Made by a program: the position numbers and the translations under genes
NCBI GenBank assembly: GCA_016932045.1
Contig: JAFGDO010000011.1
Location: forward strand, 5,997 to 69,996
Source of the DNA: Candidatus Dojkabacteria bacterium
GTDB taxonomy: Bacteria; Patescibacteriota; Dojkabacteria; JAHIVN01
Direction: 5' to 3'
Length of the DNA: 64,000 nt
Notes under the pieces: generated by a model
Told to the model about the DNA's origin: nothing
Database searches by the model: none
What the model saw: only the letters and a program-made list of their open reading frames with translations
Part shown: piece by piece, positions 32,563-52,212 of the stretch
Layout of the letters: the number at the start of each line of letters is the position of its first letter
Position numbering within the stretch: the first letter of the stretch is position 1

Positions 32563-34737
32563 ATGGATAACAATACTGCTCAGAGTCCAGGAGTTAGTGA
32601 CACAACACAAGACGGAAGCAAGTCGCCTTTACTCGGAAGTAACTTTGCTGCTACTTCTCCTCCCTTGCATGATCAGCCGAAAATAACACCAAGTGCTCCT
32701 CAAGTAAAATCTCCATTGGTTGATGTTTTGAAGAATAAAGATGGGGAAGATGCTCAGGTCGGTTCTGTTCCTTCAACTCTTCCTGGAGAAGTTCAACAGG
32801 CTCAAGTCTCTCAAATAGACCCTGTTTCTTCGAATCAAGGAACAGATGCAACTCAAGATATTGCATTAGATGAAAGCAAACAGGGACCTTCATTTAAGGG
32901 TATTACTGTAGATGATTACAAAGGTAAGACGATTGCGGAGATACTACGGGAGAAAGGTAAGTTGAGACCTGAACAATTTGAAGAAGTAAAATTTGAAATC
33001 GCGAGTAGAAAAGGAAGTGAGGAGGAGATCATAAGAAGGAAAGGATGGCTTGAGGAAGATGAGATAGTAAAAGCAAAAGCTGCATCTTATGGTGTTCCAT
33101 ATGTAGATTTAAAAGAAGTTGAGATCCCGCGTGAAATTCTAACAAAGTTGCCTTATGAATCAGCTAGAACACACAAGGCAATTCTGTTTAAAGATGATCC
33201 CAATATTGCTCACGTCGGTATGGAAGATCCTCTGGATATTCAAAGGGTAAGATTTATTGAAAGTATCTTGGGAAAGAGCGTAAAGGCCTATTTTGCAAAC
33301 CCTGGAGACATTAAGGATTATTTGGATACAAAGTATGCAGGCAGGATAGAGACCGAAGTTACTGAGGCAGTAGAAGAAGTCGGAGAAGGTGTTGTGAAGA
33401 TTGAAGAAGGATTAAGGGATATAGCAGAGGTTGAAGACACTATTGCAACTGCACCCGTTGCAAGAATTGTAAATATGGTACTTGAATATGCCGTAAAATT
33501 TAAAGCAAGTGATGTCCACATTGAACCAAGGGAAAAGAAGCTGGTTGTCCGGTTTCGGATAAACGGAGTTATGATGGAAAGACTGCAGCTTCCTCCAACT
33601 CTTATAGCTTCGGTTGTTTCAAGAGTGAAAATTCTCTCAAATCTAAAAATCGATGAGCACAGAATTCCCCAAGATGGGAGGTTTCAGATAAAGGTAGGGA
33701 TAAAGGAAGTAGATCTGAGAGTCTCTATTATGCCTACAGTCCATGGGGAGAAAGTTGTGATTCGTCTTTTAGAGAAAGGCGGTAGTGTGCGGAGACTTGA
33801 GGAAACTGGGATGAGAGGATCGGGTTTTAAGGTTTACCGAGAAGCCTTAGAGGCTACACAAGGAATTCTCCTCGTAACAGGGCCGACTGGTAGCGGAAAG
33901 ACCCAAACTTTAGCAAGTTCATTATTAATTCTTAATAGACCTGATGTAAATATTGTTACCCTTGAGGATCCTGTTGAGGTGAAGGTAGACGGAGTGAATC
34001 AGGTTCAAGTAAATGCTGATGTGGGGCTTACCTTTGCAAAAGGATTGCGATCAATACTCAGGCAAGACCCGGATATTATAATGGTTGGAGAAATCAGAGA
34101 TCAGGAGACAGCTGAACTTGCAGTTCAGGCATCGCTAACGGGACATCTTGTACTAGCAACCTTGCACACCAATAGTGCATCGGGTGCTCTCCCGAGACTA
34201 CTTGATATGAAAGTTGAGCCGTATCTTTTAACTTCCACAGTAAACATTATTGTTGCGCAAAGACTAGTTCGGACTATATGTGATAAGTGCAAAGAGGCAT
34301 ATAAGCCAAGTGAAGAGATAGTTAAGACAATTCATAAGGTTATGGTCGGTCTTGCGGGATTTGATATGTATTCTTTTCCCAAAAGTACAAATCCGCTCTC
34401 TTCTCCGGGACAAGTGAATACTCAAGATCCAAATCAGGTACCTCCCAGGGAGCTTGAAAAGCAACAAGAAGCAAAGCCGGCAAGGGAGGTAATTTTATAT
34501 AGAGGAAAGGGGTGCAGTAAGTGCGGAGATACAGGCTACAGTGGAAGAACTGGAATATTTGAAGTATTAAGGGTGAGTGAGAAGGTCGCACAGCTTATTA
34601 TGGAACACAGGTCTTCTGGAGATATTGAAAGACAGGCGAAGGAAGAAGGTATGATAACTATGGTCCAAGACGGATTTCTGAAAGCTCTTGAAGGGGTAAC
34701 TACAATTGAGGAAGTGCTGAGAGTTCAGAAGAAGTAA
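32563..34737 (+). CDS. pilB: Type IV pilus assembly ATPase PilB (GspE family) with a low-complexity N-terminal extension
   Basis: A GspE_N domain is present. Walker A is LLVTGPTGSGKTQTL. Further motifs are VTLEDPVE and IIMVGEIRDQETAELAVQASLTGHLVLATLHTNSA. A tetra-Cys CxxC...CxxC motif is present. Confidence 0.9.
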   Translation: MDNNTAQSPGVSDTTQDGSKSPLLGSNFAATSPPLHDQPKITPSAPQVKSPLVDVLKNKDGEDAQVGSVPSTLPGEVQQAQVSQIDPVSSNQGTDATQDIALDESKQGPSFKGITVDDYKGKTIAEILREKGKLRPEQFEEVKFEIASRKGSEEEIIRRKGWLEEDEIVKAKAASYGVPYVDLKEVEIPREILTKLPYESARTHKAILFKDDPNIAHVGMEDPLDIQRVRFIESILGKSVKAYFANPGDIKDYLDTKYAGRIETEVTEAVEEVGEGVVKIEEGLRDIAEVEDTIATAPVARIVNMVLEYAVKFKASDVHIEPREKKLVVRFRINGVMMERLQLPPTLIASVVSRVKILSNLKIDEHRIPQDGRFQIKVGIKEVDLRVSIMPTVHGEKVVIRLLEKGGSVRRLEETGMRGSGFKVYREALEATQGILLVTGPTGSGKTQTLASSLLILNRPDVNIVTLEDPVEVKVDGVNQVQVNADVGLTFAKGLRSILRQDPDIIMVGEIRDQETAELAVQASLTGHLVLATLHTNSASGALPRLLDMKVEPYLLTSTVNIIVAQRLVRTICDKCKEAYKPSEEIVKTIHKVMVGLAGFDMYSFPKSTNPLSSPGQVNTQDPNQVPPRELEKQQEAKPAREVILYRGKGCSKCGDTGYSGRTGIFEVLRVSEKVAQLIMEHRSSGDIERQAKEEGMITMVQDGFLKALEGVTTIEEVLRVQKK

Positions 34738-34873
34738 AGGTGAAGATAGTCGGATGGGTTGATTGCCCCTGCCTCGCTGGCAGGCTATGTGATACGTGGC
34801 AGGCGGGCTCCTTGAGCTGGGATTAATAGATAGTTGTATTTTAAAGACAGTGGATTTTAGGTATTAGAAATTC

Positions 34874-34927
34874 CTTTATCTAAATATCTGAATATCTAAT
34901 AACTGATATCTAATATTATCTGAACAA
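34874..34927. repeat. Tandem TATCTRA motif array upstream of pilT
   Basis: tttatctaaatatctgaatatctaataactgatatctaatattatctgaa carries six TATCT(A/G)A units. Confidence 0.45.
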
Positions 34928-34933
34928 ATTAAA

Positions 34934-36148: not shown

Positions 36149-36162
36149 ATATATAGTGAGAC

Positions 36163-36210
36163 CTCTAGATAGTCAGATAGCTGGATAGTAAAAATAGGAA
36201 GATAATAGCA
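36163..36210. repeat. Tandem AGATAG/GGATAG motif array upstream of pilC
   Basis: ctctagatagtcagatagctggatagtaaaaataggaagataatag is the reverse-strand form of the TATCT family. Confidence 0.45.
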
Positions 36211-36324
36211 AGTAGCATAAAGCTAGGAGTGAGAGGAATTGCATTATTGAGAATAGTAGTTTATATTTTGCAGTAGGTTAAATATTTTGTAATAAATGAA
36301 TTTAAATTATTAGCAGTATAGGTA

Positions 36325-37536
36325 ATGGCTCTCTATGAATATGTAGCAGTTGAATCATCAGGGAAAACAGTAAAGGGTGACTATGAGGCTAAGGATCGAA
36401 ACGAAGTTGTAGATTTTTTGCATGAAAAAAATCTTGTGGTTGTCCATGTTGATGAAAAGTTAAAGAGGAATCTAAAGGATATTTTTAACATTCAAATCGG
36501 GGGCATTCCACTCACAAACAAAGTTGTTTTTTCCAAACAGCTCGCTACGATGATTTCTGCTGGACTACCACTTCTTCAAGCTCTTGAGGTCCTTGCAAGC
36601 CAAGAGAAGAATGCTCCGTTTAAGGCCTCCCTGGAAAATGTCATACAACTTGTTGAAGGGGGAAGTAAACTATCAAATGCTTTTGCAAAACAGAAAGGGG
36701 TTTATACGGCTGTAGAGTTAAATCTAATTTCTGCTGGGGAAGAAAGTGGTAACCTTGTTGAAATGATTCAGCAGGTAGCAGATAATCTTGAAAAGCAAAA
36801 GGACTTCCAGTCAAAGGTTCGTAGTGCAATGATATACCCTGCAATTATGTTTGTAGCTATTATTGGAGTAGTTGCGCTTCTTATGATTTTTATGGTTCCG
36901 GCAGTTGAAGATCTATACGAGGATTTTGGAGGCGAACTTCCATGGGTTACGAAAGCAATTGTTGCAATTAGCAATTTTATGGTTTCCTTCTGGTGGCTCC
37001 TTGTTTTCATCATAATCTGTGGTCTCGTTGCTTATAGATACTACTACTCTACTCCATCTGGAAGACAAGTGATACACCGGTTAATTTTATCAATGCCTGT
37101 ATTTGGAGATTTGAATACAAAGATTCAGTTAGCCGAGTTCGGCCGGCTTCTTTCGATGCTTTTGACTAGTGGTATTTCAATTATTGAGTCACTAAATATT
37201 GTTTCAGGAGCACTATCAAATGTTCACTTTAAAAAAGCAGTCAAAGATGCTACTTTCGATGTTGAGAAAGGAACTCCTCTTGCTGTACCCCTTTCCAAGA
37301 ATGAGGATTTCCCTTTGATTGTAAGTCGAATCATTGCAACTGGTGAGAGTACGGGTAACTTGGATAAGGTATTAAAAGATCTTGGGAAATACTATCAAAC
37401 TGAAGTAGATTATATGACATCTAACTTGACAAAACTTATGGAACCGATTATCTTATTTATTGTAGGTGGGGTTGTTGCTTTTCTGGCCTTGGTTGTATAT
37501 ATGCCTATTTATAACTTAGCAACTATAGTAGTATAG
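36325..37536 (+). CDS. pilC: Type IV pilus platform protein PilC (GspF family)
   Basis: Two GspF repeats are present, with motifs such as LSMLLTSGISIIESLNIV and ATGESTGNLDKVL. There are three TM helices. Confidence 0.9.
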   Translation: MALYEYVAVESSGKTVKGDYEAKDRNEVVDFLHEKNLVVVHVDEKLKRNLKDIFNIQIGGIPLTNKVVFSKQLATMISAGLPLLQALEVLASQEKNAPFKASLENVIQLVEGGSKLSNAFAKQKGVYTAVELNLISAGEESGNLVEMIQQVADNLEKQKDFQSKVRSAMIYPAIMFVAIIGVVALLMIFMVPAVEDLYEDFGGELPWVTKAIVAISNFMVSFWWLLVFIIICGLVAYRYYYSTPSGRQVIHRLILSMPVFGDLNTKIQLAEFGRLLSMLLTSGISIIESLNIVSGALSNVHFKKAVKDATFDVEKGTPLAVPLSKNEDFPLIVSRIIATGESTGNLDKVLKDLGKYYQTEVDYMTSNLTKLMEPIILFIVGGVVAFLALVVYMPIYNLATIVV

Positions 37537-37566: not shown

Positions 37567-38058
37567 ATGAAAGTACTAAAAGGGAAGAAGGGGTTTACTC
37601 TAGTTGAATTGCTTGTCGTACTTGCGATTGTCGGTATATTGATCGGACTTGCAGTTGGAGGGATTAGAATTGTACAACAGGTAAACAGAGATACTCAGAG
37701 AAAGGCATGGGCACGAGATGTCCAACTTGCATTAGAGGCAATACAAGAACGCAGGAATCGATATCCAGATGGTATAACTCTTACTGATACCGGGGAGAAG
37801 ATGAAAATAGAAGCTTGTGTTGGAACAGGAGCCAATAAGGTCTGTGATGAAGTCCTCTCGGAAGTAGTTTTTGACATGTCGGAATTCACGACAAATAATT
37901 GTACTGCGGCTGATGTCCCAAGTGAAGTTGAAGACGATGCTGGGCAGATAAGCGGTTGTTATGAGGGTTCTGGTCAAGGTTATTGGTTGTATCTGGACTT
38001 AGAAAGAAGTGGTGAAGGTTATAATGCAAGTAACCTAACAGATCCTCCGACAGATTAA
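37567..38058 (+). CDS. pilA: Type IV major pilin (PilA-like)
   Basis: The class III signal is MKVLKGKKG|FTLVELLVVLAIVGIL with G-1 and E+5. The C-terminal region has two Cys pairs. Confidence 0.75.
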   Translation: MKVLKGKKGFTLVELLVVLAIVGILIGLAVGGIRIVQQVNRDTQRKAWARDVQLALEAIQERRNRYPDGITLTDTGEKMKIEACVGTGANKVCDEVLSEVVFDMSEFTTNNCTAADVPSEVEDDAGQISGCYEGSGQGYWLYLDLERSGEGYNASNLTDPPTD

Positions 38059-38154: not shown

Positions 38155-39018
38155 ATGCTGAAAGAACCTATGTCCTGGCTACTATTCATCTTATTTTTAC
38201 TAGGTTTATCAATCGGTAGTTTTATAAATGCTTTTGAGTACAGATTGCACAAGCGCATGGATTTTATAAAAGCAAGATCCCACTGTCCGAAGTGCAAACA
38301 TGTACTAAAGGCCCAAGATCTTATGCCTCTGCTGTCTTTTGTGCTTATTGGCGGCAAATGTAGGTATTGTGGAACTAAAGTTTCATGGCAATACCCTATT
38401 ATCGAATTTCTCTCTGGTATGCTCTTTTTCGCTTCGGGATGTTACGTTTCCTCTAGAATGCATATCCAAGGGCCTTTCGATATAGTTGTTATGTTACTTT
38501 CTTCTTGTTTTGTAGGTCTTTTGCTTACACTCTTTCTCTTTTTTGCACTATATGATGTGAAACATAAAATAGTTCCACAAAAGGTTATTATCCCAGCTAT
38601 TATTTTTGGTGTTTTCTATGTTTTATTTGTTGCCTTAGGTATGCATTTTAAGCCGCATTTGGATGTTTTCTTGGTATTTGAAGATGTAAGCCTCGTATGG
38701 AACTTTGTCGCAGCACTAATCGGGGGTTCTTTTATCGCTCTTCTCATAATTATCACCAGGGGCAAAGGTATGGGTGGAGGGGATTTGAAACTTCTAGTGT
38801 TTATGGGACTTATTTTAGGTCTAAAAAAGCTTGTTATTGCTTTCTATATTGCAATAATAACAGGATCAATTCTTGGAATATCTTGGGGTGCGCTAAAGGG
38901 GAAAATACGAGGTTTAAAGCTTCCTTTTGCTCTATTCTTGTCTCTCGGATCCATTATAGCTTTTTTGTGGGGGTCGGATATTTATTGGTGGTTTATAGGG
39001 ATTATCTGCTATTATTAG
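38155..39018 (+). CDS. pilD: Prepilin peptidase PilD (A24 family)
   Basis: The N-terminal zinc tetra-Cys is CPKCKH...CRYCG. The catalytic region is GMGGGDLKLL. Length is 287 aa. Confidence 0.9.
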   Translation: MLKEPMSWLLFILFLLGLSIGSFINAFEYRLHKRMDFIKARSHCPKCKHVLKAQDLMPLLSFVLIGGKCRYCGTKVSWQYPIIEFLSGMLFFASGCYVSSRMHIQGPFDIVVMLLSSCFVGLLLTLFLFFALYDVKHKIVPQKVIIPAIIFGVFYVLFVALGMHFKPHLDVFLVFEDVSLVWNFVAALIGGSFIALLIIITRGKGMGGGDLKLLVFMGLILGLKKLVIAFYIAIITGSILGISWGALKGKIRGLKLPFALFLSLGSIIAFLWGSDIYWWFIGIICYY

Positions 39019-39345: not shown

Positions 39346-39473
39346 GTCTGTTGGTAGACAGGGATCCGCCTAGGTCGGAAACTACTTATCTGTGTCCTAC
39401 TTCTTTCCAATTTGAAACTTCTGACAGATATAGTACAATGTTTATGAAATTTTTTGGTTTTTGTAAATTAAGT

Positions 39474-40055
39474 ATGTCGAAACTAGGAAAGAAATTCTTA
39501 AAAATTTACTCAAGGCAATCTGCATATACTATTTTAGAACTATTAATAGTCTTGTCGGTTGTTGGTACGATGATGGGAATTGTTGTTTATGGTGTTGTTA
39601 AGTTTAGGCAGACTGTTATTGTAAGTAATACAGCGAAAGAGATAGTTATTCAGATGAGGAAAGCAAGGAGGTATTCAATTAATAACGTCGTTACATCAGA
39701 TGGATTGAATCCTAGAGGATATTATTTTTATATTGATAATAATACAAATTACTACTTTGGTGAATGCGATTCGGGAGGTTGCACACATGAAGAAAAGGTG
39801 AAATCTGTAGAATTAACAGGAGTTAATGTTTCAGCTTGTAAAGTTGCCGGAGGCAATAGTTATCCAGTAATAAAATTTAACCAGGTGACTGGAGAATTTA
39901 TCTTTGTAGCTAGTTCTGCTTCAAGTGATATTATGGGTGCCACATCCCCTTCCTATAATGAGACATGCATCATAGAAGTAGAGATCGGTGGGACCATAAG
40001 TTCCTTGAGGGAAATTGAAGTTTCTGGTCAGAATAGGACTATTAGAATTAAATAG
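39474..40055 (+). CDS. Type IV minor pilin/pseudopilin. The start is uncertain; alternatives are 39438 and 39351.
   Basis: The prepilin-like sequence MSKLGKKFLKIYSRQSA|YTILELLIVLSVVG has E at +5 and Ala, not Gly, at -1. Confidence 0.55.
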   Translation: MSKLGKKFLKIYSRQSAYTILELLIVLSVVGTMMGIVVYGVVKFRQTVIVSNTAKEIVIQMRKARRYSINNVVTSDGLNPRGYYFYIDNNTNYYFGECDSGGCTHEEKVKSVELTGVNVSACKVAGGNSYPVIKFNQVTGEFIFVASSASSDIMGATSPSYNETCIIEVEIGGTISSLREIEVSGQNRTIRIK

Positions 40056-40257: not shown

Positions 40258-40803
40258 ATGAGTAAATTGATAGGTAGTAAAATAAGACATCTTAAGGAAT
40301 TGGTTCGAGGATCAGATGGGCTTGGACTAGTTGAGGTTTTAGTTGCTCTGGCAGTCGTAGGTACTGCTATGGTTATCATTACACAGATTAGCCTCAAGAC
40401 TATAAAGCAGGCGAGGAAAAATGAACTCCAGGACGTAGCCAACCAGGTAGCTGTCGAAGCTTTGGATTTTATGAAACAACCAGGTAATATCACAGTGGAA
40501 ACAATTGGCGGGAGTAGTCCTAATTTAAATGGCGGTTTGTACAGATTGGATGTTGCAAATGGGAAAATTGAGTATAGTTCTTCCCAGCAGGCTGAGTTAA
40601 GTACAAGTAATTGTACTCCAGGGAGTCACTATTTAGATGCAAGTCTTTACTCATCAGGGTACCATGTCTGTCAACAAATTAAACTGACGAAAGTTTCAGA
40701 ATATAGATTTAATATCAAAGTAATTGTGGTATGGCAGACAGTTGGAGGAGAATATGATATTCGCGAATTGGCAGGATATAGGATTGGTGAGATTATTACT
40801 TAA
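40258..40803 (+). CDS. Type IV minor pilin/pseudopilin
   Basis: The class III signal is ...VRGSDG|LGLVEVLVALAVVG with G-1 and E+5. Confidence 0.65.
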   Translation: MSKLIGSKIRHLKELVRGSDGLGLVEVLVALAVVGTAMVIITQISLKTIKQARKNELQDVANQVAVEALDFMKQPGNITVETIGGSSPNLNGGLYRLDVANGKIEYSSSQQAELSTSNCTPGSHYLDASLYSSGYHVCQQIKLTKVSEYRFNIKVIVVWQTVGGEYDIRELAGYRIGEIIT

Positions 40804-40813
40804 GAATAAATAA

Positions 40814-41395
40814 ATGGATATATGTCACAGGCTGTTACAAAAAGTTAAGAGAGTAATATTTTCCGATTCGAGTGGTTTCTCTTTACTTGAACTGTTAATT
40901 ACGCTTGGAATATTTTCAATATTGATGGTAACAGTGACAGCTATTCTAGTTATAAATTTAAATGTTGCAAGAAAGATAAAGGGAAGAACTTATGCAAGAG
41001 AAGAGACGGCTTTTGTTCTCAATATTCTCAAGAAAGACATAAGAAATGCCGAGTTTATAGAAGAAGATTCCGGGAAATTAAGAGTAGTTGTAATTGATGA
41101 AGGAGGAAACAGCCGTACTTATGAATGGTCCCATGATGGTGATGATATAGTTCGCGAGGAAACTATTCCTGACACAAGAGTTACTTATCGAACTCCTGAG
41201 GACGTTGATTTTGAATCATTTAATTTTACGGTAACTGAAAATGAAAATAATTGGCTAGTAAGAATTTCAGTTACAGCATGGAGCGCTGGAATGCCCGGGC
41301 AACCCCTTGAGGATGGGGGCTCATGTAGTAATACTGAACAGCAATGTATCACAAAAGAAGTTGCAATTGCTACTAGAAATTTCGAGGAGCTATAA
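40814..41395 (+). CDS. Type IV minor pilin/pseudopilin
   Basis: The class III signal is ...IFSDSSG|FSLLELLITLGIF with G-1 and E+5. Confidence 0.65.
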   Translation: MDICHRLLQKVKRVIFSDSSGFSLLELLITLGIFSILMVTVTAILVINLNVARKIKGRTYAREETAFVLNILKKDIRNAEFIEEDSGKLRVVVIDEGGNSRTYEWSHDGDDIVREETIPDTRVTYRTPEDVDFESFNFTVTENENNWLVRISVTAWSAGMPGQPLEDGGSCSNTEQQCITKEVAIATRNFEEL

Positions 41396-41462: not shown

Positions 41463-42404
41463 TTGTTTCTTATAATGAAGTTTTTTCTAAAATCGATCAT
41501 AAATAGAATTAAGAAGAGAGATGAATCAGGGCAAATGTTGCTTTTTGTCTTGGTTGTAATTTTATTATTGCTGATCATAGTTCTTGCTATTGTTGTAAAC
41601 GTAAGGGTAGATATAAAAGAAACTCAAATGGAAAGGGAGTATGAGATGGGATACGCTATAGCAGAGGAACAAATTTTTAAAATTGCTTCTCTGGGCTATG
41701 CTGATGCAAAGGCGGAAAATGATAGTGCAAATTCGTGTTATACAAACACAGGTGATACTGGAACATTCTGTCCAGGAACAGAAGGGTGTGCTGGGGGCTG
41801 GGTGTGTACGGCCTATTGCTGCAAGGACTCACCTCCTTCAGGATGTGACTGTGACAGCGGAGATTGTTTTGTTGATAAAGTGTGCACTCACAATAGTATA
41901 TTTGGTGTATCTATAAATCAAGATGAAACTTTGGAAGTCGACCTCGGTGGACAGTCGGTTAGTGACTTTACAGATATATTTATTGATTGGGATACTGCAG
42001 AGGCTATATCTTTAATGGTTGTTTACAAGGATGGCCCTGGTAATTATCTAAATCAAAGGTTAGCAATGTGCAGAGAAGGCAATAATGGTTGCTATACAGG
42101 ATTTATAAACTATGATAATAGTCTGAATCTTGAATCTGACTGGAAAGGTGGCGTTACTATTTCCGGAACTGCAGTACTAATGAGAATAAGAGCGATTGGT
42201 GGTCAGGCAACAAATGTAACTGTTACAGGCAGTAACCTTCCCGTACAAATGGATGAAGTACGAGTTCAAGGTTTTACTGAAGGAGTAGCAGATGCAAAAG
42301 GTTTGTCTGCTCCTGAAGTTACAACATTAGCGATGAAGAATAAAAGGTTACCTGCTCTATTTGATTATGTACTATTTGTAGCAAATGATGATGTTACTAA
42401 ATAG
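41463..42404 (+). CDS. Pilus-associated membrane-anchored Cys-rich protein (PilX-like position)
   Basis: There is an N-terminal pilin-like hydrophobic helix without E+5. The Cys-rich module is CPGTEGCAGGWVCTAYCCKDSPPSGCDCDSGDC. Confidence 0.45.
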   Translation: MFLIMKFFLKSIINRIKKRDESGQMLLFVLVVILLLLIIVLAIVVNVRVDIKETQMEREYEMGYAIAEEQIFKIASLGYADAKAENDSANSCYTNTGDTGTFCPGTEGCAGGWVCTAYCCKDSPPSGCDCDSGDCFVDKVCTHNSIFGVSINQDETLEVDLGGQSVSDFTDIFIDWDTAEAISLMVVYKDGPGNYLNQRLAMCREGNNGCYTGFINYDNSLNLESDWKGGVTISGTAVLMRIRAIGGQATNVTVTGSNLPVQMDEVRVQGFTEGVADAKGLSAPEVTTLAMKNKRLPALFDYVLFVANDDVTK

Positions 42405-43448: not shown

Positions 43449-43826
43449 TTGAAGAAAGTAACTTTGGTGCTAAAAATCATAGCAGTTGTTTTTTTTGTAT
43501 TGAATCTATTTGTGGGTATAGTTATGATTCTCAATGTTGCAAACATGAAGAATAAGTCGTTTTTTTATCTACACAAGTTGAGTAGTGATGGTGGATTGGA
43601 TGAACCAAAGGTGAATCAGTTAATTGAGGATTGTAACTATGCAGATGAAGTGCTTGTATGTAATACGAATAATGATTTTATGATTTGGGGGAGGTATGAA
43701 TATGGTTTGGGGAAATTATCAGCGGGGACTTGTGAAGTTCTTGGGCTTGATAAAAATGGTTTGTCTTACTGTGCAAGAGGCGAAAATTATTTATGGATTC
43801 AGCCCGTTACTTATGAGGAACGTTAG
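43449..43826 (+). CDS. Hypothetical membrane-anchored protein
   Basis: 125-aa ORF with an N-terminal TM and a conserved Cys pair. Confidence 0.4.
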   Translation: MKKVTLVLKIIAVVFFVLNLFVGIVMILNVANMKNKSFFYLHKLSSDGGLDEPKVNQLIEDCNYADEVLVCNTNNDFMIWGRYEYGLGKLSAGTCEVLGLDKNGLSYCARGENYLWIQPVTYEER

Positions 43827-46731
43827 TTGTACTACAAGGAAGATTTTATATTGTTTGACTAGTACTTTTTTGGTGCTGATGTTTTGTGTTTTATTGTTCA
43901 GGGCTAGTGAAGTAAATGCTGTTTGCGGTGATTGTGGGTCATGCGGTCACCAATGCGGCTCAAGTTGCAGCGGCTGTGCATTGTGTTGCGCTTGCGGTGG
44001 AAATCCTTCTTGTGGTACTGGCAGCTACCCTTACTGTTGTAAGGACTGCAATAAAGGTGGGCATACAGATTGCTGCTGTGGAGGTTGTTTTCCTCCTGAA
44101 ACAAAAGTTACCATGGCGGATGGTTCTTTTAAGAATATCGAGGATATGAATGAGGGAGATGAGATCCTTACTTATAATGATGATATAGGAAAGAATGTTG
44201 CTGGAGAAGTACTCCAGGTTAAAACTTTTTCGAGAAATGGATATTATGTAGTGAATGACAATTTGCTAAAAGTTAGCGACAGTCATCCTATATATGCAAG
44301 GAAGTGGTATGGGCGGGAAACGTGGGCAGCTATAAATAAGTTTCAGGGGATTGTTGACTCAGGGTTAACGGAGCTGTCTTCACTTGAGGTTGGTGACAGC
44401 ATTTTGAATCAGGAGGGCGAATGGATACAAATAACATCTTTAGAATATTTTGCTGGAGGACTTGAAACATACACTTTAGTTTCCGACAATGGAACATTTT
44501 ACGCTGAGGGTTTTTTAGTTCATAATAAAGGATGTAGTTGTCAGACACCCAACGGAGTATCTTTAGTTTCTCCTGCAAATGGTACAGTTGAAATTGCATC
44601 GACTAGTGTTACATTGGACTGGACAGACACTTCTGATTGGAAAAAATGTTGTGATGACTGCAGTAAACATTACGAAGTTAGATTGAAGACAACTGGTGAT
44701 TGGTATGAACCAGGCGATTGTACTAATCCAACTTCTTCGACTTGTACTGTATCAGGTTTAAGCTGGTGTACAACCTATCAGTGGCAGGTAAAAGCAGATA
44801 ATGGGTGCAAATCATCAAGTTATACAGGGGTGTGGACATTTAAAACGAACTGTCTTCCGGAAGTTATTTCAGTAACGCCATCAGGGAATTGGTCTGGGAC
44901 AGAAACTGATACGGATAATGCCTCGGGATGTAGTGATAATAATCCTCAGACTTTCCAGATTGAATATAGAGATCAAGATGGGCATGATGATCTGTACTCA
45001 CTGGGGATATGGATAGATGACCAGGCTCCGCATGTGATGCAGATGCACAGCTCAATGCATGGAATGGCATCAAGAAGAGAGGGAGATTGGAGGATGTTTG
45101 GTTGGAGCTGCGATACAAGCAGACATGACACATGCGGGAGTTTACTAGATTGTGATTGTTATCTGAATTGGGATCTTGATGTGCCTTATTATGGTGTTGT
45201 TATTCCAGAGTCAACATACTCAATTTGTTCACCGAAAACTATTACAAATAGATCTGATGAATCACCATGGGATTTTTATGCCTTGTGTGATCCTCAATAT
45301 GCTCCACCAGTGAATTGGACAATATCAAATCTTCAGGGTTTTCCAGCTTCAAATACTAAGCTGGTTGACTGGAAGGTATGGTTTTATGGGGATATTGGAA
45401 CAAACTTAGATATCTATGCTGTAGCTATTGATGAACATGGGGCAAGATCAGGCAACTGGCAGGACATAGGAGACTGGAAGTTGGATCTGGACCTGCCTTT
45501 GGCAGACCCAGCACCACAGCCAAATTCGGCTTCACAAATGAGGGTTGACTGGGCAGTAAGTGAGGCAAAAAGCGGTATAAGAACAATAGACAGAGATTGC
45601 AGGAGTGATTTAGGAAGTAGTGATATTCCTGATTGTGGATGTGCAACAGGATTATGTACAACGTGTGAGAATCCTGCTGATCCACAGACATGTTATAGGG
45701 GGAGGAATACGAATTGGAAGAAAGCAGATGGAACTGATGACGGGGTGGATGACGTGGTAATGCCGGGAGGGACAAGCTGGACACATACGAACTACGATAC
45801 GATAACAGACATATCAAGTATAGAAGACGTACAATACAAGCTGACAGTGTCAGATAATGCATGTAATCAAAATAGGGTCGTAGATGAACAGGAATTGGGC
45901 AAAAGATGGATAAGGACAGATTATGGAGATACATATGCAAGTGGAGGATATAGTCTGCAGATACCGGATTTGATAGCTGAGGATAAAAGAGACAACCTTT
46001 CAAGATTCATATGCTCATCAGGGGTAGCAGTGAATGCATTTAGTCCTGGGGGAGCAAGTGTATATAATTATAGACTTTTTAGTTATGCAGATGAGAATAA
46101 GAATAAGACGTTTTATGATTATCTTGAAGAGATAGTAAGAGAGAATGATGATCATGAAAGCTGGAACATGGGAAGCTTCAGTACACCAGCACAGTGGGAT
46201 GGGATACAAAGCGCAGGGACAGACGGAGTGTATGAATGGACAGCAGGGACAGATTTAAACCTTTCAGGGAAGAATTGTACTGCAAAGACATTAGTATTTG
46301 TTCCATCTGGGCAGCTTATTATAACGCCGAATTTCGGGGTAACTGATGTAAGTGTAGCTGGGAGTGATAATGGATGTGTATTTGTAGTAAGGGACAATAT
46401 AGTGATACAAGCAGGAGGAGTAGGAACAGGATCATATTCCTCACCATATTATCCAGACACTGTACCATATGATTCGGTATATGGATTCTTCATCACAGAT
46501 GGGAATGTGATAATAGATGCTGATACAAACTATGACCAGCTCTTGATAAAGGGAGGGGTGATAAGCAGGGGGGGGACATTTGGAAGGGACTTACTCCTGC
46601 TAGATAATCTAATATTTGCAGCAGAGAGGATAGAGTATGATGCAAGGTATCTGGACATATTGAAACCGTACATAGGAAGTAATTACACGTATAAAGTAAG
46701 AGAATACAAATATTCTGAACCTACCTACTAA
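43813..46731 (+). CDS. Large secreted protein with a bacterial intein-like (BIL/Hint) autoprocessing domain. Start chosen at MRNVSC; the ORF-track start is 43696.
   Basis: The signal peptide is MRNVSCTTRKILYCLTSTFLVLMFCVLLFRASEVNA. It is followed by a ~55-aa Cys/Gly/Ser-rich segment, then the Hint module CFPPETKVTMADGSF...LKVSDSHPIYA...TFYAEGFLVHN at nt 44086-44526. FN3-like and large C-terminal domains follow. Confidence 0.7.
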   Translation: MRNVSCTTRKILYCLTSTFLVLMFCVLLFRASEVNAVCGDCGSCGHQCGSSCSGCALCCACGGNPSCGTGSYPYCCKDCNKGGHTDCCCGGCFPPETKVTMADGSFKNIEDMNEGDEILTYNDDIGKNVAGEVLQVKTFSRNGYYVVNDNLLKVSDSHPIYARKWYGRETWAAINKFQGIVDSGLTELSSLEVGDSILNQEGEWIQITSLEYFAGGLETYTLVSDNGTFYAEGFLVHNKGCSCQTPNGVSLVSPANGTVEIASTSVTLDWTDTSDWKKCCDDCSKHYEVRLKTTGDWYEPGDCTNPTSSTCTVSGLSWCTTYQWQVKADNGCKSSSYTGVWTFKTNCLPEVISVTPSGNWSGTETDTDNASGCSDNNPQTFQIEYRDQDGHDDLYSLGIWIDDQAPHVMQMHSSMHGMASRREGDWRMFGWSCDTSRHDTCGSLLDCDCYLNWDLDVPYYGVVIPESTYSICSPKTITNRSDESPWDFYALCDPQYAPPVNWTISNLQGFPASNTKLVDWKVWFYGDIGTNLDIYAVAIDEHGARSGNWQDIGDWKLDLDLPLADPAPQPNSASQMRVDWAVSEAKSGIRTIDRDCRSDLGSSDIPDCGCATGLCTTCENPADPQTCYRGRNTNWKKADGTDDGVDDVVMPGGTSWTHTNYDTITDISSIEDVQYKLTVSDNACNQNRVVDEQELGKRWIRTDYGDTYASGGYSLQIPDLIAEDKRDNLSRFICSSGVAVNAFSPGGASVYNYRLFSYADENKNKTFYDYLEEIVRENDDHESWNMGSFSTPAQWDGIQSAGTDGVYEWTAGTDLNLSGKNCTAKTLVFVPSGQLIITPNFGVTDVSVAGSDNGCVFVVRDNIVIQAGGVGTGSYSSPYYPDTVPYDSVYGFFITDGNVIIDADTNYDQLLIKGGVISRGGTFGRDLLLLDNLIFAAERIEYDARYLDILKPYIGSNYTYKVREYKYSEPTY

Positions 46732-46855: not shown

Positions 46856-47332
46856 ATGAGCAAGAGAAGAATCGGCTATATATTTATTCTTGTTGGTGTT
46901 CTAGTTGCAGTCTTTTCAGGTGTTGTTGTTCTATCACTAACCTTGAAGGAGAAAGAGGAATATAAGGAAATAGAAGAGATTGAGGAGGAAGAAGGGTTTG
47001 AAGAGGAAAGTCCCGAAGAGATAGTAAGGGAAGCTTTTGGAGGGGTTTATCCTTTAAGCGGTGAAATTATTGAGATAGACGTAGGTGAAAAGTGGATAAT
47101 GGTAAAGGTTGATGATGAAGAAAAAAGGTTTGATATTTCAGATAACTTTAAATGCGAGCAAATAGGTATGCCGGGTCAGGTTTGCGAAAGTATGGAAGGC
47201 ACCGGATGTGATTTGGAACCGTTAACTTGTAGGCTTTCTTCTGTCGAAATAGAGAATTCTCTTGGCGTTGATTTGGAGATTGATTCGGATAACGAGGCTG
47301 TATTTTTAAGAGTACATTACATTGCCCATTAA
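46856..47332 (+). CDS. Hypothetical acidic membrane-anchored protein
   Basis: N-terminal TM and a Glu-rich low-complexity region. Confidence 0.4.
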   Translation: MSKRRIGYIFILVGVLVAVFSGVVVLSLTLKEKEEYKEIEEIEEEEGFEEESPEEIVREAFGGVYPLSGEIIEIDVGEKWIMVKVDDEEKRFDISDNFKCEQIGMPGQVCESMEGTGCDLEPLTCRLSSVEIENSLGVDLEIDSDNEAVFLRVHYIAH

Positions 47333-47340: not shown

Positions 47341-49422
47341 ATGGCCAAACTGAAAGATAAAGAAAATTATATTCTAGTATTTCTATCCTCTTCTCTTCTC
47401 TTTATAACGATACTATTGTTTTTTCCTGGAAGAATTTTTGCAGCAGGTGCAAATCCACTCGAAAGGCTACCTACTGGAAAAACAACACCTGATGATTTAG
47501 GTTGGACATATATCGGGTCCAGTGTTGGCGGGTATAAGTGCTATGATTTAGCTAGTTATGGTGTAGAAAAGGTCAGATATGTTATGTTCTTAAATGATTC
47601 AAATCAGACTGAATGGGATGTAAGAGGTGCAGATCCTGATGGTGTACTTGTGATACACGCAGAAGATCCTGCTTATAACGGAATCGGAGCAAATGCTGTT
47701 GCGCATGTAAAGATCGGAGACGGGGGTGTAGGCAAGTATGGATGTAATGATGATGGAAATCTAAGTCGCGTTCTGGGAGCTCCAAAAAGATGTGGAGGAA
47801 CTCCGGGATGTGCTTGTGCTCTTGGTCACGATCCGGAGCCGGGACAATACGGCGGAGAAAGTGGGTATGTTATATTGGATGTTGCTTGTGGTACTAATAT
47901 AAATCCACTGACTTGTAGTGGTCCAGAAAGTGAGGATAGTGGAAGGCTGATAGTTGATAGGCCTGGCAATGACTTTTGTGTGTCTGAAGTTGGTTATGGA
48001 GAATCTCATAGACTTTATACATTAGATTACTATGCAAATGCACCTGAAGTAACGGTAAACAAACCCGAGAATTGTGCAAATGAGTTTGTGTTTAGAATTA
48101 CAGCAAGGGATGATGAGGATCAAGGAGTTTCAAAATTTACGCTACTTCTTAATGATAAACGTAGTGGTCCTTGGGTGGTAAGGTCTGACCGTCTAGGAGT
48201 CGATCTGGAGGCTGGCGGTAAAAATAGTCTTGGAGCAATTGTGGAAGATTATAGAGAGCCTTCAAGTAAAGAATCTATACTTGAACTTAAAGTAGGAAAT
48301 TTATCTACAAGATTTGATGAAGAAGATATAGGTGTTTTAGCTGAAGTGGAAGATAAGCGGGGACAAATAGGCAAGGGCGACGGAGGGACCTTTATCTCGG
48401 GTTTAAAGCCAGCAGTGGAATTCTTGAATGATTCCAGGGAGGAAAATACTATAACTTTGAGTTGGCAAGTGAGCGATAATCGGCCACTTGCAACAAAATG
48501 CAATTTTTCGTGTGCTGGAGACGGAGCTTGCAACTGTGGGGCTATTCCATGTCCAAGTATGAATCCAGAGACAGTATCAATTTCTTGTACACTCGAAACA
48601 ATCGGCAGCTATAATTTCGAATATACTGTAGAAAACATTTGTGGTTCTGATACAGATAGTCAGGGAGCTACATTGGGAGCCCCATGGCTTATGACGGCTT
48701 ATGGTGATACTTATGCACATCAGGGGTTTGGTACTTTGGTAATGCAGGATGTTATCGATGATACTATGGTATCTTCCTGGGCTAAAGGTGAGCCTCCAGG
48801 CAGTGGGAATCAAGCATATTTTTCAACATACATAATTTCAAAGTTTGATCAAAATTATCCTAGTAGAACAAGTTTGTTAAATTACTTACTTTCTCCTTAT
48901 GAGGATAGGAATGTATCTAAAGTTGGTACTCCAGATGAAGTTTACCATTTTATGTTTGCTCTTGCTCAATCTAATGAATGTTTTGATTCTGGTTTTTGTT
49001 CGGAAGTTCTAAATAAAGATGTTGATGTTTCCAGTATGAACTGTGAGGCGACGCATGTTTATTTTGTAGATGGGGATCTAAATTTTATTGGCAGTGGCAG
49101 TTTCTTGGCGTCCCCAAATGAAGCGTGTGTTTTTGTTGTGAAGGGAAATGTCACAGTGGGATCAGGGGTCGAAAGAATAGACAGCTTTATACTTTTAGAT
49201 GGACAGTTCGAAACTGAAATTAGTGGTACAACACTTGTTTTGCAAGGGGGGGTAATAACAGATAATTCTCTTTTTAAAAGATCCTTAAGCGGTTTTCAGA
49301 ACAATGATATGCCAAGTGAAATCATTATATATGATGCAAAGTATCTGGATTTACTTCGAGAATATATAAGTCAGGGATACACTGTCAAAATAAGAGAATA
49401 TAGTTATTCAAGTGTTAAGTAA
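47341..49422 (+). CDS. Large secreted protein, paralog of the C-terminal part of 43813-46731
   Basis: A signal peptide is present. Shared blocks are AYGDTYAHQGF, CVFVVKGNVTVGSG and LQGGVI. The shared C-terminal block is YDAKYLDLLREYISQGYTVKIREYSYS. Confidence 0.65.
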   Translation: MAKLKDKENYILVFLSSSLLFITILLFFPGRIFAAGANPLERLPTGKTTPDDLGWTYIGSSVGGYKCYDLASYGVEKVRYVMFLNDSNQTEWDVRGADPDGVLVIHAEDPAYNGIGANAVAHVKIGDGGVGKYGCNDDGNLSRVLGAPKRCGGTPGCACALGHDPEPGQYGGESGYVILDVACGTNINPLTCSGPESEDSGRLIVDRPGNDFCVSEVGYGESHRLYTLDYYANAPEVTVNKPENCANEFVFRITARDDEDQGVSKFTLLLNDKRSGPWVVRSDRLGVDLEAGGKNSLGAIVEDYREPSSKESILELKVGNLSTRFDEEDIGVLAEVEDKRGQIGKGDGGTFISGLKPAVEFLNDSREENTITLSWQVSDNRPLATKCNFSCAGDGACNCGAIPCPSMNPETVSISCTLETIGSYNFEYTVENICGSDTDSQGATLGAPWLMTAYGDTYAHQGFGTLVMQDVIDDTMVSSWAKGEPPGSGNQAYFSTYIISKFDQNYPSRTSLLNYLLSPYEDRNVSKVGTPDEVYHFMFALAQSNECFDSGFCSEVLNKDVDVSSMNCEATHVYFVDGDLNFIGSGSFLASPNEACVFVVKGNVTVGSGVERIDSFILLDGQFETEISGTTLVLQGGVITDNSLFKRSLSGFQNNDMPSEIIIYDAKYLDLLREYISQGYTVKIREYSYSSVK

Positions 49423-49519
49423 GAAGTATTTTTTTTGTTTTTACTAAATATATAGATTCTCTTTTGTACTAGACAGAAGTATTAAAATCTCTTATACTAA
49501 TAGGTAGACAATTATTTTT

Positions 49520-50599
49520 TTGATTAAACATCTTATGAACCTGCCCGATTTTTTTGGCTTAGATATTGGAACTCACTCAATAAAGGTTTGTCAGCTGAGA
49601 TGGCAAGGCAAAAATCCTACCTTGATAGCGATCGGCAATACGGCAACTCCAAGGGGAATACTCGGAAGTGAGAGTGAGGAACATCAGAAGGAGTTAGCAA
49701 GACATATTAAACTTGCGCGTAAAGATGCGGGGATTAGCGTTGATAAGGCAGTTGTTGGTTTACCAGAAGCAAGAATTTTTACCCAGCTAGTTACGGTCCC
49801 AAAAGTAGAGGAAGGAAAGGTTGAAGAACTCATTCACTGGGAGGCAAAAAAGTATGTTCCTATCCCGATTGATGAGGTAAGAATAGACTGGATATTTTTG
49901 GGAGAGAGAAATATAGATGGTCAACCCCATCTTGATGTCTTTCTTATTGCAGCTCCCAATAATCTCATAGAACGATATATAAAGGTGATGAAATATGCAG
50001 GAATAGAACCTATTGGTATAGAGACTGAGTCGATTTCAACTACCAGAGCGTTGTGGTGGCCGACACAGATGGGAGTAAAAGATGCTGATTCTCAAGAATC
50101 ATCATCGGTTATGATCTTAGACTTTGGAGCAAATAGTACTGATCTTTCAGTTGTACAAGCTGGTTCTCTACTCTTTTCACAAAGCCTTGTAACAGGATCA
50201 GATGCGCTTACAAAAGCGCTAGCTTCCGATTTCGGATTGGATGTTCAACAAGCCGAAGAGTACAAAAGAAATTATGGTCTCGATGAAACTCAATTAGAAG
50301 GTAAGATTGCTAACTCCCTAAAGCCTGTAATGCAAGTAATTACAAATGAAGCACGAAAAACACTCGATTTCTTTAAATCAAGATTTGAGAAGAGTACTCC
50401 AAGAAGGCTCTTATTAGTTGGAGATGGAGCAAAATTACCCGGAATCCTGACTTTTATGGCAACTGAACTGGGTATAGAAGCAGCGTTAGCAGACCCTTTT
50501 GCAAATGTAGCGGTTTCGAAAAATGTCGAGAGTAAATTTCAGCAGATCTCATCTGTTGGATATTGTGTAGCTCTTGGTTTATCATTAAAGACTGAGTAA
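49520..50599 (+). CDS. pilM: Type IV pilus assembly protein PilM (actin-like ATPase fold)
   Basis: FFGLDIGTHSIKVCQL is the phosphate-1 motif. LVGDGAKLPG is also present. Confidence 0.85.
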   Translation: MIKHLMNLPDFFGLDIGTHSIKVCQLRWQGKNPTLIAIGNTATPRGILGSESEEHQKELARHIKLARKDAGISVDKAVVGLPEARIFTQLVTVPKVEEGKVEELIHWEAKKYVPIPIDEVRIDWIFLGERNIDGQPHLDVFLIAAPNNLIERYIKVMKYAGIEPIGIETESISTTRALWWPTQMGVKDADSQESSSVMILDFGANSTDLSVVQAGSLLFSQSLVTGSDALTKALASDFGLDVQQAEEYKRNYGLDETQLEGKIANSLKPVMQVITNEARKTLDFFKSRFEKSTPRRLLLVGDGAKLPGILTFMATELGIEAALADPFANVAVSKNVESKFQQISSVGYCVALGLSLKTE

Positions 50600-50711
50600 G
50601 TAATATTTCAGTGGTCGAATTCTCATTCGGATCTGTAGAGCGGAATATATAATAATCTAAGGATCAACTGAAAGCGAAGGATTTTCTATAGTATATCTTT
50701 TATCTAGTATA

Positions 50712-51284
50712 ATGCCAGTATATAAACACACAATTGATTTCTTACCTAAGCCTAGTACAGAAGAGGTTGAAGAACGCTTTAAAGTATCAAAGGCAGGTGT
50801 ATATGCTGCAATTCTTCCGCTTCTTGCTGCTTTAATTTGGCTGGCTGCGGTCTTTATCAATTTCTACTACAGGAATGAGGTGAAACAAGTAGAAGCAGAG
50901 ATTCTTGCTAAACGTGTAGAGGTTGATTCATACTTGGAAACCAGGAGGAAACAAACGGAACTTGTGTTGAAAGTTGACTCATTAACGGACTTGGTTCAAA
51001 AGGATTTTTTTCCTCAAAAATTTTTTGATGATGTTTCAGATACAATTAAATCTACAGGAGATGCTCAAGCGACTATATATGCATACGGTCGAGAAGAAGA
51101 TGGTATGTTTAGTATAGAAGGGCGGGCAAACTCTTATCTTGATCTTGCTAAGATAATGGTTGTTTTTACTGGTAAGCGTGAGTTTGAGAATGTGATTATA
51201 AAATCTATTCACTATAATCCAGAGAGAAATAATGTGAATTTCGAAATAAAGTTTTACTATTCGGGATTATTGGAAGAAGTTTAA
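50712..51284 (+). CDS. pilN: PilN-like bitopic pilus alignment protein
   Basis: A single TM is followed by a coiled coil and a periplasmic-type domain. The gene sits directly after pilM. Confidence 0.5.
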   Translation: MPVYKHTIDFLPKPSTEEVEERFKVSKAGVYAAILPLLAALIWLAAVFINFYYRNEVKQVEAEILAKRVEVDSYLETRRKQTELVLKVDSLTDLVQKDFFPQKFFDDVSDTIKSTGDAQATIYAYGREEDGMFSIEGRANSYLDLAKIMVVFTGKREFENVIIKSIHYNPERNNVNFEIKFYYSGLLEEV

Positions 51285-51360
51285 AAGTATCTTGATTTTT
51301 TTATTCTAGAATTATTAAGTTGTTGGTATAAAACTTTATGATAGTTTTTATGCATATTCT

Positions 51361-52212
51361 ATGCCAGAAGAAGGATTACAAGACAGAAAAAGAGAAAAAG
51401 GAGTCCATGAGCTAGTGAAGGATGCCGAGAAAGGCCGTAAAGCACCACTACCCGAGAAGTTTAAAAAGAGCGGGAAGAATGCGTTAAAGATGATTTTATA
51501 TTATAGCGCTCCTCTGATAAGCATTGCTATATTTTTACTTATCCTTGTGTTGGGTACTATACCGGCGGTAAAAGGGATAGTGCAAAGTAATAATGAGATT
51601 GAAGAAAAGAATGGAGAAATTAAGGAACTAGAGAAACAGATTAAAGTACTTGAAGCCCTAAGGCTGAATGAGGCGGATGTGAATATGGACCTTGCTACTA
51701 TTGATAAAATAGTCCCCTCAGAGAAGACACAAGTTGCTAAATTTGTTGGAGAAATCGAGGAGATGGCAAAGTTATACAATCTTGAAGAATCAAAGTATGA
51801 ATCAGGGGAAACAATAGAAAAGCTAGAGGAAGAGATAGAAGAGGAGTTGAAAAAGGAAAGCGCTGCAATAATTCACATACCAACTTCTTCTGAGTATATA
51901 GCAACATTTGAAGATATCAAGGAGTTTCTAAATGCTTTATACTACAAAGATGATTTTATCATAGTAAGTTCCCTTGATATGCAGGGATATGAAGCTCGTG
52001 AGTATCAGGCAGGTCGTCAGCGTGAAATGGGAGAACAGGTTACAATTGACACAACAATTCCTGTAACTGAATGGACTATGAAGGTGACGTTTGAGAAGTA
52101 TCAATTTAGTGAGGGATTTAGTAAATATCTGGAGGAGAATTTAGTATCTATGCAGAGTAAGCCAAACGAAGAAACATTAATATTTATAAGGGAAAAATAC
52201 AGCAGTCAGTAA
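51361..52212 (+). CDS. pilO: PilO-like bitopic pilus alignment protein
   Basis: A single TM is followed by a coiled coil. The position is after pilM/pilN. Call by architecture only. Confidence 0.4.
   Translation: MPEEGLQDRKREKGVHELVKDAEKGRKAPLPEKFKKSGKNALKMILYYSAPLISIAIFLLILVLGTIPAVKGIVQSNNEIEEKNGEIKELEKQIKVLEALRLNEADVNMDLATIDKIVPSEKTQVAKFVGEIEEMAKLYNLEESKYESGETIEKLEEEIEEELKKESAAIIHIPTSSEYIATFEDIKEFLNALYYKDDFIIVSSLDMQGYEAREYQAGRQREMGEQVTIDTTIPVTEWTMKVTFEKYQFSEGFSKYLEENLVSMQSKPNEETLIFIREKYSSQ

Follow-up and report, generated by a model that had tools for sequence, protein, structure and literature searches.

A secretin-less type IV pilus locus of a Candidatus Dojkabacteria bacterium, its conserved accessory block and an unnamed family of large proteins with a modelled C-terminal solenoid

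Among the candidate means by which episymbionts of the candidate phyla radiation (CPR) find and hold their host bacteria, type IV pili rank first, but few of the parts that make the contact are known. The closest described systems are the pili of Microgenomates Ch65 (PMC7143001) and the T4P-1 and T4P-2 pili of Nanosynbacter lyticus TM7x (PMC11623550); as far as the available portions of these two sources go, the organisms are episymbiotic, pilQ is absent from their pilus loci, and large PilX-type proteins without a PilD-type signal have been proposed as tip adhesins. Here, we describe a type IV pilus locus of 18 open reading frames (ORFs, listed with their translations), which stand head to tail on the + strand at positions 32563-52212 of a 64,000-nucleotide stretch of DNA (the window), itself a portion of a 72.9-kb metagenomic contig of Candidatus Dojkabacteria (candidate division WS6). 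With the CPR pili above, as those portions describe them, it shares a single PilB-T-C-D-M locus with major and minor pilins and no pilQ. Pilus loci without a secretin are known biology in CPR, and the locus itself is ordinary for CPR. New here are its middle genes as a conserved accessory block, an unnamed family of solenoid proteins that is likely tied to the pilus tip, and a cleanly inserted bacterial intein-like (BIL) domain.

Solenoids have been proposed to stand at the pilus tip in other phyla. ComZ of Thermus thermophilus (PDB 6QVI) is a tip pilin with a solenoid like that of ice-binding proteins (IBP), which has been argued to lie at the tip, bound to a neighbouring minor pilin (PMC6561018). 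A solenoid of this kind is reported for every cyanobacterial PilX protein and was proposed as a substitute for the PilY1 "plug" (10.64898/2026.02.12.705559, a 2026 preprint). BIL domains have no nucleophile at position +1 and mostly cleave (PMC7664689), and the BIL2 domain of Tetrahymena BUBL1 (6Y75/6TMM) ligates onto a lysine amine (PMC8616854).

The accessory block and the large solenoid proteins

The loci used for comparison were found via the large solenoid paralog and were from Patescibacteria without exception; as a sample they lean toward relatives of the query. Sixteen of these other loci were pilus-linked, two were not, and one was too short to use. The window order, which runs from the minor pilins through a PilX-like gene, a receiver, small anchored protein(s) and large protein(s) to PilM-N-O, was found up to the contig ends in L002, L003, L004, L010 and L013 (L003 and L013 stop before pilM), and also in L015, L016 (on an 844-kb contig), L020 and L021, which hold much more distant family members. 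The downstream flank khpA-rpsP-rnc-nusB was kept as well in L010, L015, L016, L020 and L021. A second architecture, with PilO-N-M on the opposite strand, was observed in L005-L009 and L017; the PilX-like gene follows the large gene directly in L005-L009, with a gap of 4 nt in L007. In L011 and L012 the solenoid gene lies directly upstream of pilM-N-O.

The accessory block consists of a PilX-like cap pilin without Glu5, a CheY-like receiver, and one or two cassettes of small N-anchored protein(s) with a large Sec-exported protein. Since the PilX-like, receiver, small and large proteins hold equivalent positions in 16 other loci, the middle genes are conserved lineage-specific components and not foreign inserts; a mobile insertion was ruled out by the conserved synteny, which includes the flanks. 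A preliminary description of the locus had spoken of "non-canonical inserts". That wording remains apt for the 147-aa Hint domain described below but not for the other middle genes, and the synteny comparison with other Patescibacteria loci that it proposed showed the accessory gene order to recur.

Two large proteins, A and B, are encoded in the block (Table 1). Protein A is laid out as signal peptide, Cys-rich segment, Hint/BIL domain, fn3 domain, middle region and C-terminal solenoid, and its start is uncertain (43702, 43813 or 43879). Protein B has a signal/anchor, a Cys-containing head, two immunoglobulin (Ig)-like domains and a C-terminal solenoid. Protein B had no match in Pfam (E<=0.1) or NCBIfam. 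The paralogy of A and B claimed earlier was borne out by BLASTP (26% identity, E 5e-22), over the C-terminal ~250-300 aa only, and this shared domain was recognised by neither Pfam nor NCBIfam. With a 5-sequence profile searched against 1.84 billion proteins, the family comprised 1065 representative clusters at E<=1e-3 and 296 at E<=1e-10. The solenoid domain lay no more than 10 aa from the C-terminus in 132 of 152 proteins and closed with a conserved tail, ..P(A/S)E.I.YD(P)(K/R)Y.. (I/V)RE(Y).Y(S), while the N-terminal parts of the family were variable and often Cys-rich. No toxin or enzyme domain was found in the heads with Pfam or NCBIfam. The build that we infer for the large proteins, in part from models, is a signal peptide, a variable Cys-rich head, an Ig/fn3 stalk and a conserved C-terminal IBP-type solenoid of ~250 aa, the tail of which has the invariant form ..YD(P/A)(K/R)Y..(I/V)REY.YS. 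The locus points to a widespread, unnamed protein family that lies in a pilus locus for most loci sampled.

As a separate observation, several solenoid-family proteins (P0004, P0005 and P0029) and a companion (L002:10864-11865) carried an LPETG sortase-type motif ~15-25 residues past the N-terminal transmembrane helix. This motif is normally C-terminal.

A full-length model of protein B gave only generic Ig matches in Foldseek, after which the solenoid domain was modelled alone from 119 sequences. The domain-only model reached a predicted local distance difference test (pLDDT) score of 89.6 and a predicted template modelling (pTM) score of 0.88. An IBP-type triangular beta-solenoid is the likely fold of the ~250-aa C-terminal domain according to this model; the assignment is likely rather than certain because the Foldseek search with the domain was without significance (best E 1.9e-3, ComZ 0.23, TM score <=0.35). 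Through the modelled fold, the family is likely linked to the modules at the tips of Thermus and cyanobacterial pili. Model confidence was lowest in the conserved tail, where pLDDT was 62-72 for the domain alone and <50 for the full-length protein, and a tail that is conserved yet least confidently packed in monomer models would fit a partner-binding motif. Membership in DUF3494 was found neither for 47341-49422 (no Pfam family at E<=0.1) nor for 43696-46731 (Pfam). Only the fold is alike between the window's proteins and the ice-binding proteins of DUF3494, the setting here being the pilus locus of a mesophile-type metagenome-assembled genome, and an ice-binding role is not suggested.

The PilX-like protein was present in every related pilus locus, with a conserved N-terminal helix (..SGQMLLFVLVV..) that lacks Glu5. 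In the genome described here only, it bears a Cys-rich insertion of ~25 aa that is missing from its orthologs, in which Pfam gave nothing above noise. This insertion weakly resembles the Cys-rich segment of protein A at 43924-44085 (common YCCKD, BLASTP E 0.005); the similarity, too weak and perhaps no more than compositional, was not accepted as a sign of homology.

Few genes of the locus were as conserved as that of the receiver (75-87% identity across loci), which carries the signature residues VDDE, LLDLMMP, LTNL and YLIK, that is, the acidic pocket DD, the phospho-acceptor Asp, Thr and Lys. By analogy to PilG/PilH, it probably tunes extension and retraction. As for the small anchored proteins, companion protein 1 has positional equivalents in L020 and L021, and the acidic companion has an ortholog of 46% identity at the equivalent position in L010; in the companion proteins of other loci, Pfam gave nothing above noise.

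The Hint/BIL domain of protein A

Residues 90-238 of protein A were aligned with residues 4-148 of 6Y75/6TMM (phmmer against PDB, E 1.8e-4), an alignment that spans the Hint domain and the solved BIL domain over their whole length, and the earlier call of a BIL protein stands. The BIL motifs were read as C92 FPPETKV .. VSDSHPIY .. FYAEGFLVHN238, followed by Lys239 at +1. As in BIL2 and the A-type BILs, this is a mini-Hint domain of ~147 aa with an N-terminal Cys, a (T/S)xxH block B (here SxxH) and a His-Asn end, without Cys/Ser/Thr at +1, without an endonuclease, and in a variable secreted host protein. The Lys that it has at +1 stands beside the ligation of BIL2 onto a lysine amine, and the window's domain differs from BIL2 by its low sequence similarity. 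A canonical (class 1) intein was rejected, with Lys at +1 and a lineage-specific surface protein as host.

The domain was present in 1 of 152 family representatives, protein A alone, and missing from the other 151. Positional orthologs free of it read ..GGG-GCGCSNPGAVSLLAP.. in L020 and ..GGG-GCDCKRPNTTSLSSP.. in L021, and the junction in the window reads ..CCCGG-[147 aa]-KGCSCQTPNGVSLVSP.. Because the positional orthologs are contiguous, the Hint domain is read as an insertion; judged from these sequences, the 147-aa domain is the single true insertion, between the Cys-rich cap and fn3. Caps homologous to the Cys-rich N-extein occur in two further family members (P0147 and P0084). The idea that the segment is compositionally foreign was rejected, since its GC content (0.383) and third-position GC content (GC3, 0.32) are like those of the host gene.

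After export, the BIL domain would most likely process itself through an N-S acyl shift at Cys92 and cyclisation of Asn238. By analogy with the described BIL domains, the 54-aa Cys-rich cap would then either be cleaved off or be re-ligated onto the amine of Lys239. In the literature we found no report of a BIL domain in a pilus-locus protein or in CPR. If the prediction is true, this exported protein of a pilus locus would offer, through its BIL domain, a natural example of a protein that processes itself outside the cell.

Possible roles of the large proteins

In our view, the locus as a whole is best explained, with an even chance of being right, as the one locus for a type IVa-like pilus that can retract (PilB plus PilT) in a monoderm-type Dojkabacteria cell, with an accessory block that contributes tip-docking solenoid proteins, BIL processing and tuning by the receiver. 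A monoderm-type envelope would need neither a secretin nor PilP. The solenoid would dock onto the priming complex of the PilX-like protein and the minor pilins, and the large protein would then ride the pilus tip as an adhesin or "plug", its head held out on the Ig/fn3 stalk. Such a role would be by analogy that of PilY1 in Proteobacteria, or that of the solenoid built into ComZ of Thermus or cyanobacterial PilX, here taken by a separate polypeptide. Two paralogs with unlike heads would give two binding specificities. That the large proteins are pilus-tip adhesins or "plugs" that replace PilY1 as separate Sec-exported proteins, we hold to be a little short of even. Tentatively, and with some doubt, the whole solenoid family (at least 1000 clusters at 50% identity) could be the Patescibacteria counterpart of PilY1/ComZ, a detachable tip module with interchangeable Cys-rich heads that recognise the host, one member of which would be matured by its BIL domain outside the cell, with its cap removed or re-ligated. 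If the large proteins are tip adhesins, their variable heads would be host-range determinants for a large part of CPR.

Several points weigh against this explanation. The contact of the solenoid proteins with the pilus is inferred from synteny and a modelled fold, and the proteins differ from ComZ and cyanobacterial PilX in that their N-termini are of the Sec type and a pilin domain is missing. Adhesins of many kinds contain beta-solenoids. Pfam, NCBIfam and a profile search of PDB sequences gave no match for the PilX-like protein, the pilin fold of which is putative. The identities of PilN and PilO rest on weak or indirect support. All Pfam Hint models were below their cut-offs, at 24.2 bits or less, and the BIL processing, although most likely, is a predicted activity, which limits the reading. 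Two distant members of 1977 and 945 aa, P0142 (L018:4656-10589) and P0104 (L019:6360-9197), lie outside pilus loci and have no pilus gene within 10 kb, and the locus sample is skewed to relatives of the query. P0142 and P0104 lie among housekeeping genes, in a common context of rplS, rnhB, a SufBD-like gene, dnaG and rpmH, with 1-2 small N-anchored ORFs upstream of each. Because both lie away from pilus genes, the solenoid cassette can exist outside pilus loci.

These last two members favour the main rival explanation, possible but doubtful, in which the large proteins are free-standing surface adhesins or enzymes, held on the membrane or wall via their small companions, and are co-located and co-regulated with the pilus without being in the filament; the pilus would pull the host close and the adhesins would lock on. 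The Sec-type signal peptides and the lack of a pilin domain would suit such proteins, as would the 1-2 small N-anchored ORFs that precede each large gene both inside and outside pilus loci. However, the companions are not conserved in sequence between loci, which would be odd for the anchor of a conserved tail, and 16 of the 18 other loci are pilus-linked, in two architectures, some with the large gene adjoining the PilX-like gene. The location of the genes inside a pilus operon, and the joining of a conserved, recognition-like module to highly variable N-terminal parts, would also be expected of cargo secreted by the pilus machine, like TcpF/CofJ of type IVb pili, with the C-terminal domain or tail recognised by the tip pilin and the head released as an effector against the host bacterium. 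We know of no type II secretion system with a secretin in CPR, which counts in favour of the cargo explanation. We nevertheless consider it improbable: Sec-type signals and stalk-like Ig/fn3 domains are typical of displayed proteins, a 250-aa solenoid would be a secretion signal without precedent, and the heads are without a detected toxin or enzyme domain.

We give very little credence to the idea that the solenoid proteins build a collar of the envelope, or a conduit across the wall or S-layer, in place of the secretin and PilP. Their genes stand directly before pilM-N-O, whereas pilP-pilQ follow in diderms, which is a positional argument only, and a conserved C-terminal module could oligomerise; but highly variable heads and duplicated, divergent paralogs are ill-suited to a structural conduit, and the modelled solenoid fold is monomeric and without membrane or pore features. 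To our knowledge, the type IV pili of monoderms (Gram-positive bacteria) need no conduit.

The pilus machinery, its surroundings and comparison with known systems

The preliminary description had read the locus as a complete type IV pilus locus, and each element that it named was found in its place on the + strand, with Pfam support for the core machinery (Table 1). PilB, PilT, PilC, PilD, the receiver and PilM were clear in the domain annotation. For the PilM-PilN-PilO complex, PilN fell below its cut-off and a profile search of PDB sequences gave no meaningful match for it; its N-terminal ..IDFLPK.. corresponds to FNLLPKK in orthologs. PilO had no direct match in Pfam, NCBIfam or a profile search of PDB sequences and was supported via a homolog in L017 (30% identity, E 8e-20), which itself has a weak precomputed PF04350 PilO match; in the PilO orthologs of other loci, Pfam gave nothing above noise.

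The Walker A motif of PilB is GPTGSGKT, and the protein is 51-59% identical in the distant loci L007-L009 (tblastn), the closest loci beginning downstream of pilB. Its N-terminus bears a low-complexity extension of ~110 aa, rich in Ser/Pro/Gln, before MshEN (32563-32900). PilT has the motifs GPTGHGKST (Walker A) and AVRNAIRE and is 75-84% identical in L002 and L003. PilD has the motifs CPKC..CRYC and GGGDLK.

Class III-type signals (a short basic leader, G/A at -1, a hydrophobic residue at +1 and Glu at +5) were found in four proteins, and a motif scan of the 64 kb gave prepilin motifs in these four only. All three minor pilins have a [GA]-[FYL]xLxE motif and a hydrophobic helix, and two of the three missed the N_methyl cut-off. 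Minor pilin 1 had weak GspH/ComGC-type NCBIfam matches and has orthologs in related loci; those of minor pilin 2 are 46-53% identical. Of the leader lengths reported earlier, 9 aa for the major pilin and 21 aa for two minor pilins hold, while 17 aa for minor pilin 1 is conditional on ATG 39474: its ORF opens at 39351, and the alternative ATGs 39438 and 39444 would give a leader of 29 or 27 aa. No Shine-Dalgarno pattern helped in the choice of start codons, and a promoter and terminator scan gave a signal no better than shuffled sequence. The Ala at -1 of one minor pilin (SRQSA, then YTILE), also noted earlier, was seen again, and it recurred in prepilins, major as well as minor, of L002-L009 (KAKKA then FTLLE; NEKA then FSLVE; NKNAA then YTLLE). 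Ala at -1 is frequent in the prepilins of the lineage, which suggests that its PilD takes either residue, Gly or Ala, at this position.

Table 1. Features of the pilus locus and of the window, with positions in the window.
Feature	Position	Strand	Support
PilB extension ATPase, 724 aa	32563-34737	+	T2SSE 431.9 bits, MshEN 54.8 bits
PilT retraction ATPase, 404 aa	34934-36148	+	T2SSE 151.7 bits, no MshEN domain
PilC platform protein	36325-37536	+	T2SSF in two stretches, 198 bits
Major pilin	37567-38058	+	N_methyl 34.7 bits; leader MKVLKGKKG (9 aa), then FTLVELLVV
PilD, bifunctional prepilin peptidase / N-methyltransferase	38155-39018	+	A24_N_bact 96.2 bits, Peptidase_A24 45.5 bits
Minor pilin 1	39474-40055	+	N_methyl 19.8 bits (cut-off 21.2); MSKLGKKFLKIYSRQSA, then YTILELLIV; Ala at -1
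Minor pilin 2	40258-40803	+	N_methyl 16.6 bits (cut-off 21.2); 21-aa leader ..RGSDG, then LGLVEVLVAL
Minor pilin 3	40814-41395	+	N_methyl 27.7 bits; 21-aa leader ..FSDSSG, then FSLLELLITL; orthologs present
PilX-like non-canonical pilin (candidate cap), 309 aa, 12 Cys	41475-42404	+	Conserved N-terminal helix, synteny
Single-domain response-regulator receiver (CheY/PilG/PilH-like)	42422-42829	+	Response_reg 92.8 bits
Companion protein 1, N-terminally anchored, 183 aa	42888-43439	+	Transmembrane-like segment at residues 8-37; no family match
Companion protein 2, N-terminally anchored, 125 aa	43449-43826	+	One transmembrane-like segment; no family match
Solenoid protein A, 972 aa	43813-46731	+	Source gene call; fn3 28.1 bits; family (A2) hidden Markov model 296 bits
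Cys-rich N-extein of protein A, residues 38-91, 16 Cys in 54 aa	43924-44085	+	Sequence
Hint/BIL domain of protein A, 147 aa, residues 92-238 (972-aa numbering from 43813)	44086-44526	+	Motifs and PDB alignment
fn3 domain of protein A	44572-44817	+	Pfam fn3 28.1 bits, cut-off 25
C-terminal solenoid of protein A (modelled fold), ending ..YDARYLDILKPYIGSNYTYKVREYKYS	45907-46728	+	BLASTP against paralog, E 5e-22; family profile
Acidic N-terminally anchored companion, 158 aa, pI 4.2, 24% D+E	46856-47332	+	Composition, topology
Solenoid protein B, 693 aa	47341-49422	+	AlphaFold2 full-length model; orthologs
Two Ig-like beta-sandwich domains of protein B, residues 232-445	48034-48675	+	pLDDT 85-97; Foldseek: tandem Ig folds
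C-terminal solenoid of protein B (modelled fold), residues 446-693	48676-49419	+	C-terminal domain
PilM, actin-like	49535-50599	+	PilM_2 165.1 bits; start per orthologs and source gene call
PilN-like bitopic protein	50712-51284	+	Pfam PilN 16.4 bits (cut-off 22.8); one transmembrane segment
PilO-like bitopic coiled-coil protein	51361-52212	+	Position, topology, homolog; one transmembrane segment
Lgt (lipoprotein diacylglyceryl transferase) and LCP-family (LytR_cpsA_psr) protein	7949-8935 and 10108-11460	+	Domain annotation; fit a monoderm-type wall

The lack of pilQ and pilP in the window was confirmed, with zero matches to the Secretin and PilP families of Pfam (components of the diderm form) in any ORF of at least 100 aa of the 64 kb. 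The monoderm or CPR-like envelope that the preliminary description had proposed agrees with the organism's name (a protein identical to the 693-aa protein B is named Candidatus Dojkabacteria at NCBI), with relatives in Patescibacteria only, with the pilQ-less CPR pili of the literature and with LCP and Lgt nearby, the predicted wall functions of which fit a monoderm-type wall. The locus has housekeeping flanks, gyrB, gyrA and holB upstream and khpA, rpsP, rnc and nusB downstream.

Elsewhere in the window, a tyrosine recombinase (17749-18792, +; Phage_integrase 119.5 bits) stands at a strand switch and adjoins the stretch of lowest GC content (16-18 kb, GC 0.33). GC skew tracks the coding strand, at +0.2 to +0.3 over the + strand gene blocks (1-17 kb and 32-52 kb), whereas most of the length with genes on the - strand has negative values. 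A 988-aa ORF (20317-23283, -) had no Pfam or NCBIfam match, and beside it lies a 459-aa protein (23441-24820) with an AAA ATPase region and a Trans_reg_C DNA-binding domain. A GH18 glycosidase is encoded at 55753-56931. Three genes at 57748-63417 (-) encode an FG-GAP repeat protein, a FecR-like protein and a CHASE2 sensor fused to an adenylate/guanylate cyclase, a run that could be a surface or signalling cluster.

Against this background, the available portions of the two reports on CPR pili (PMC7143001, PMC11623550) describe no separate Sec-exported solenoid family, receiver gene or BIL domain. The PilX-like protein of the window has an analogy in PilX1/PilX2 of TM7x, in which jelly-roll or beta-propeller domains belong to the pilin polypeptide (PMC11623550), unlike the arrangement in the window.

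The large proteins share with the PilY1/PilC adhesins of Proteobacteria and Myxococcus a Sec signal, an N-terminal adhesin part that varies, and a conserved domain for docking at the C-terminus, which in the window's proteins would be the solenoid. PilY1 genes are reported to stand with minor pilins, often in several paralogous sets (PMC7541494). The C-terminal domain of PilY1 is a beta-propeller, whereas that of the window's proteins is a modelled beta-solenoid, and Pfam gave no match to the PilY1/Neisseria_PilC family in the large proteins of the window. The two are alike in architecture and, by analogy, in proposed role, and homology is not claimed.

ComZ of T. thermophilus and cyanobacterial PilX are alike with the window's proteins in a solenoid that is proposed to stand at the pilus tip and to replace PilY1. 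The solenoid of ComZ and cyanobacterial PilX is set into a GspK/PilX-like pilin fold whose N-terminal helix is hydrophobic, whereas in the window it is the C-terminal part of a separate protein with a Sec signal and no pilin motif, and the PilX-like pilin is the product of a neighbouring gene. The solenoid of the window is ~14% identical to those of ComZ and the cyanobacterial proteins, with weak Foldseek support. If the large proteins are tip adhesins, this split arrangement would broaden an emerging view in which, outside Proteobacteria, the place of PilY1 is taken by beta-solenoids.

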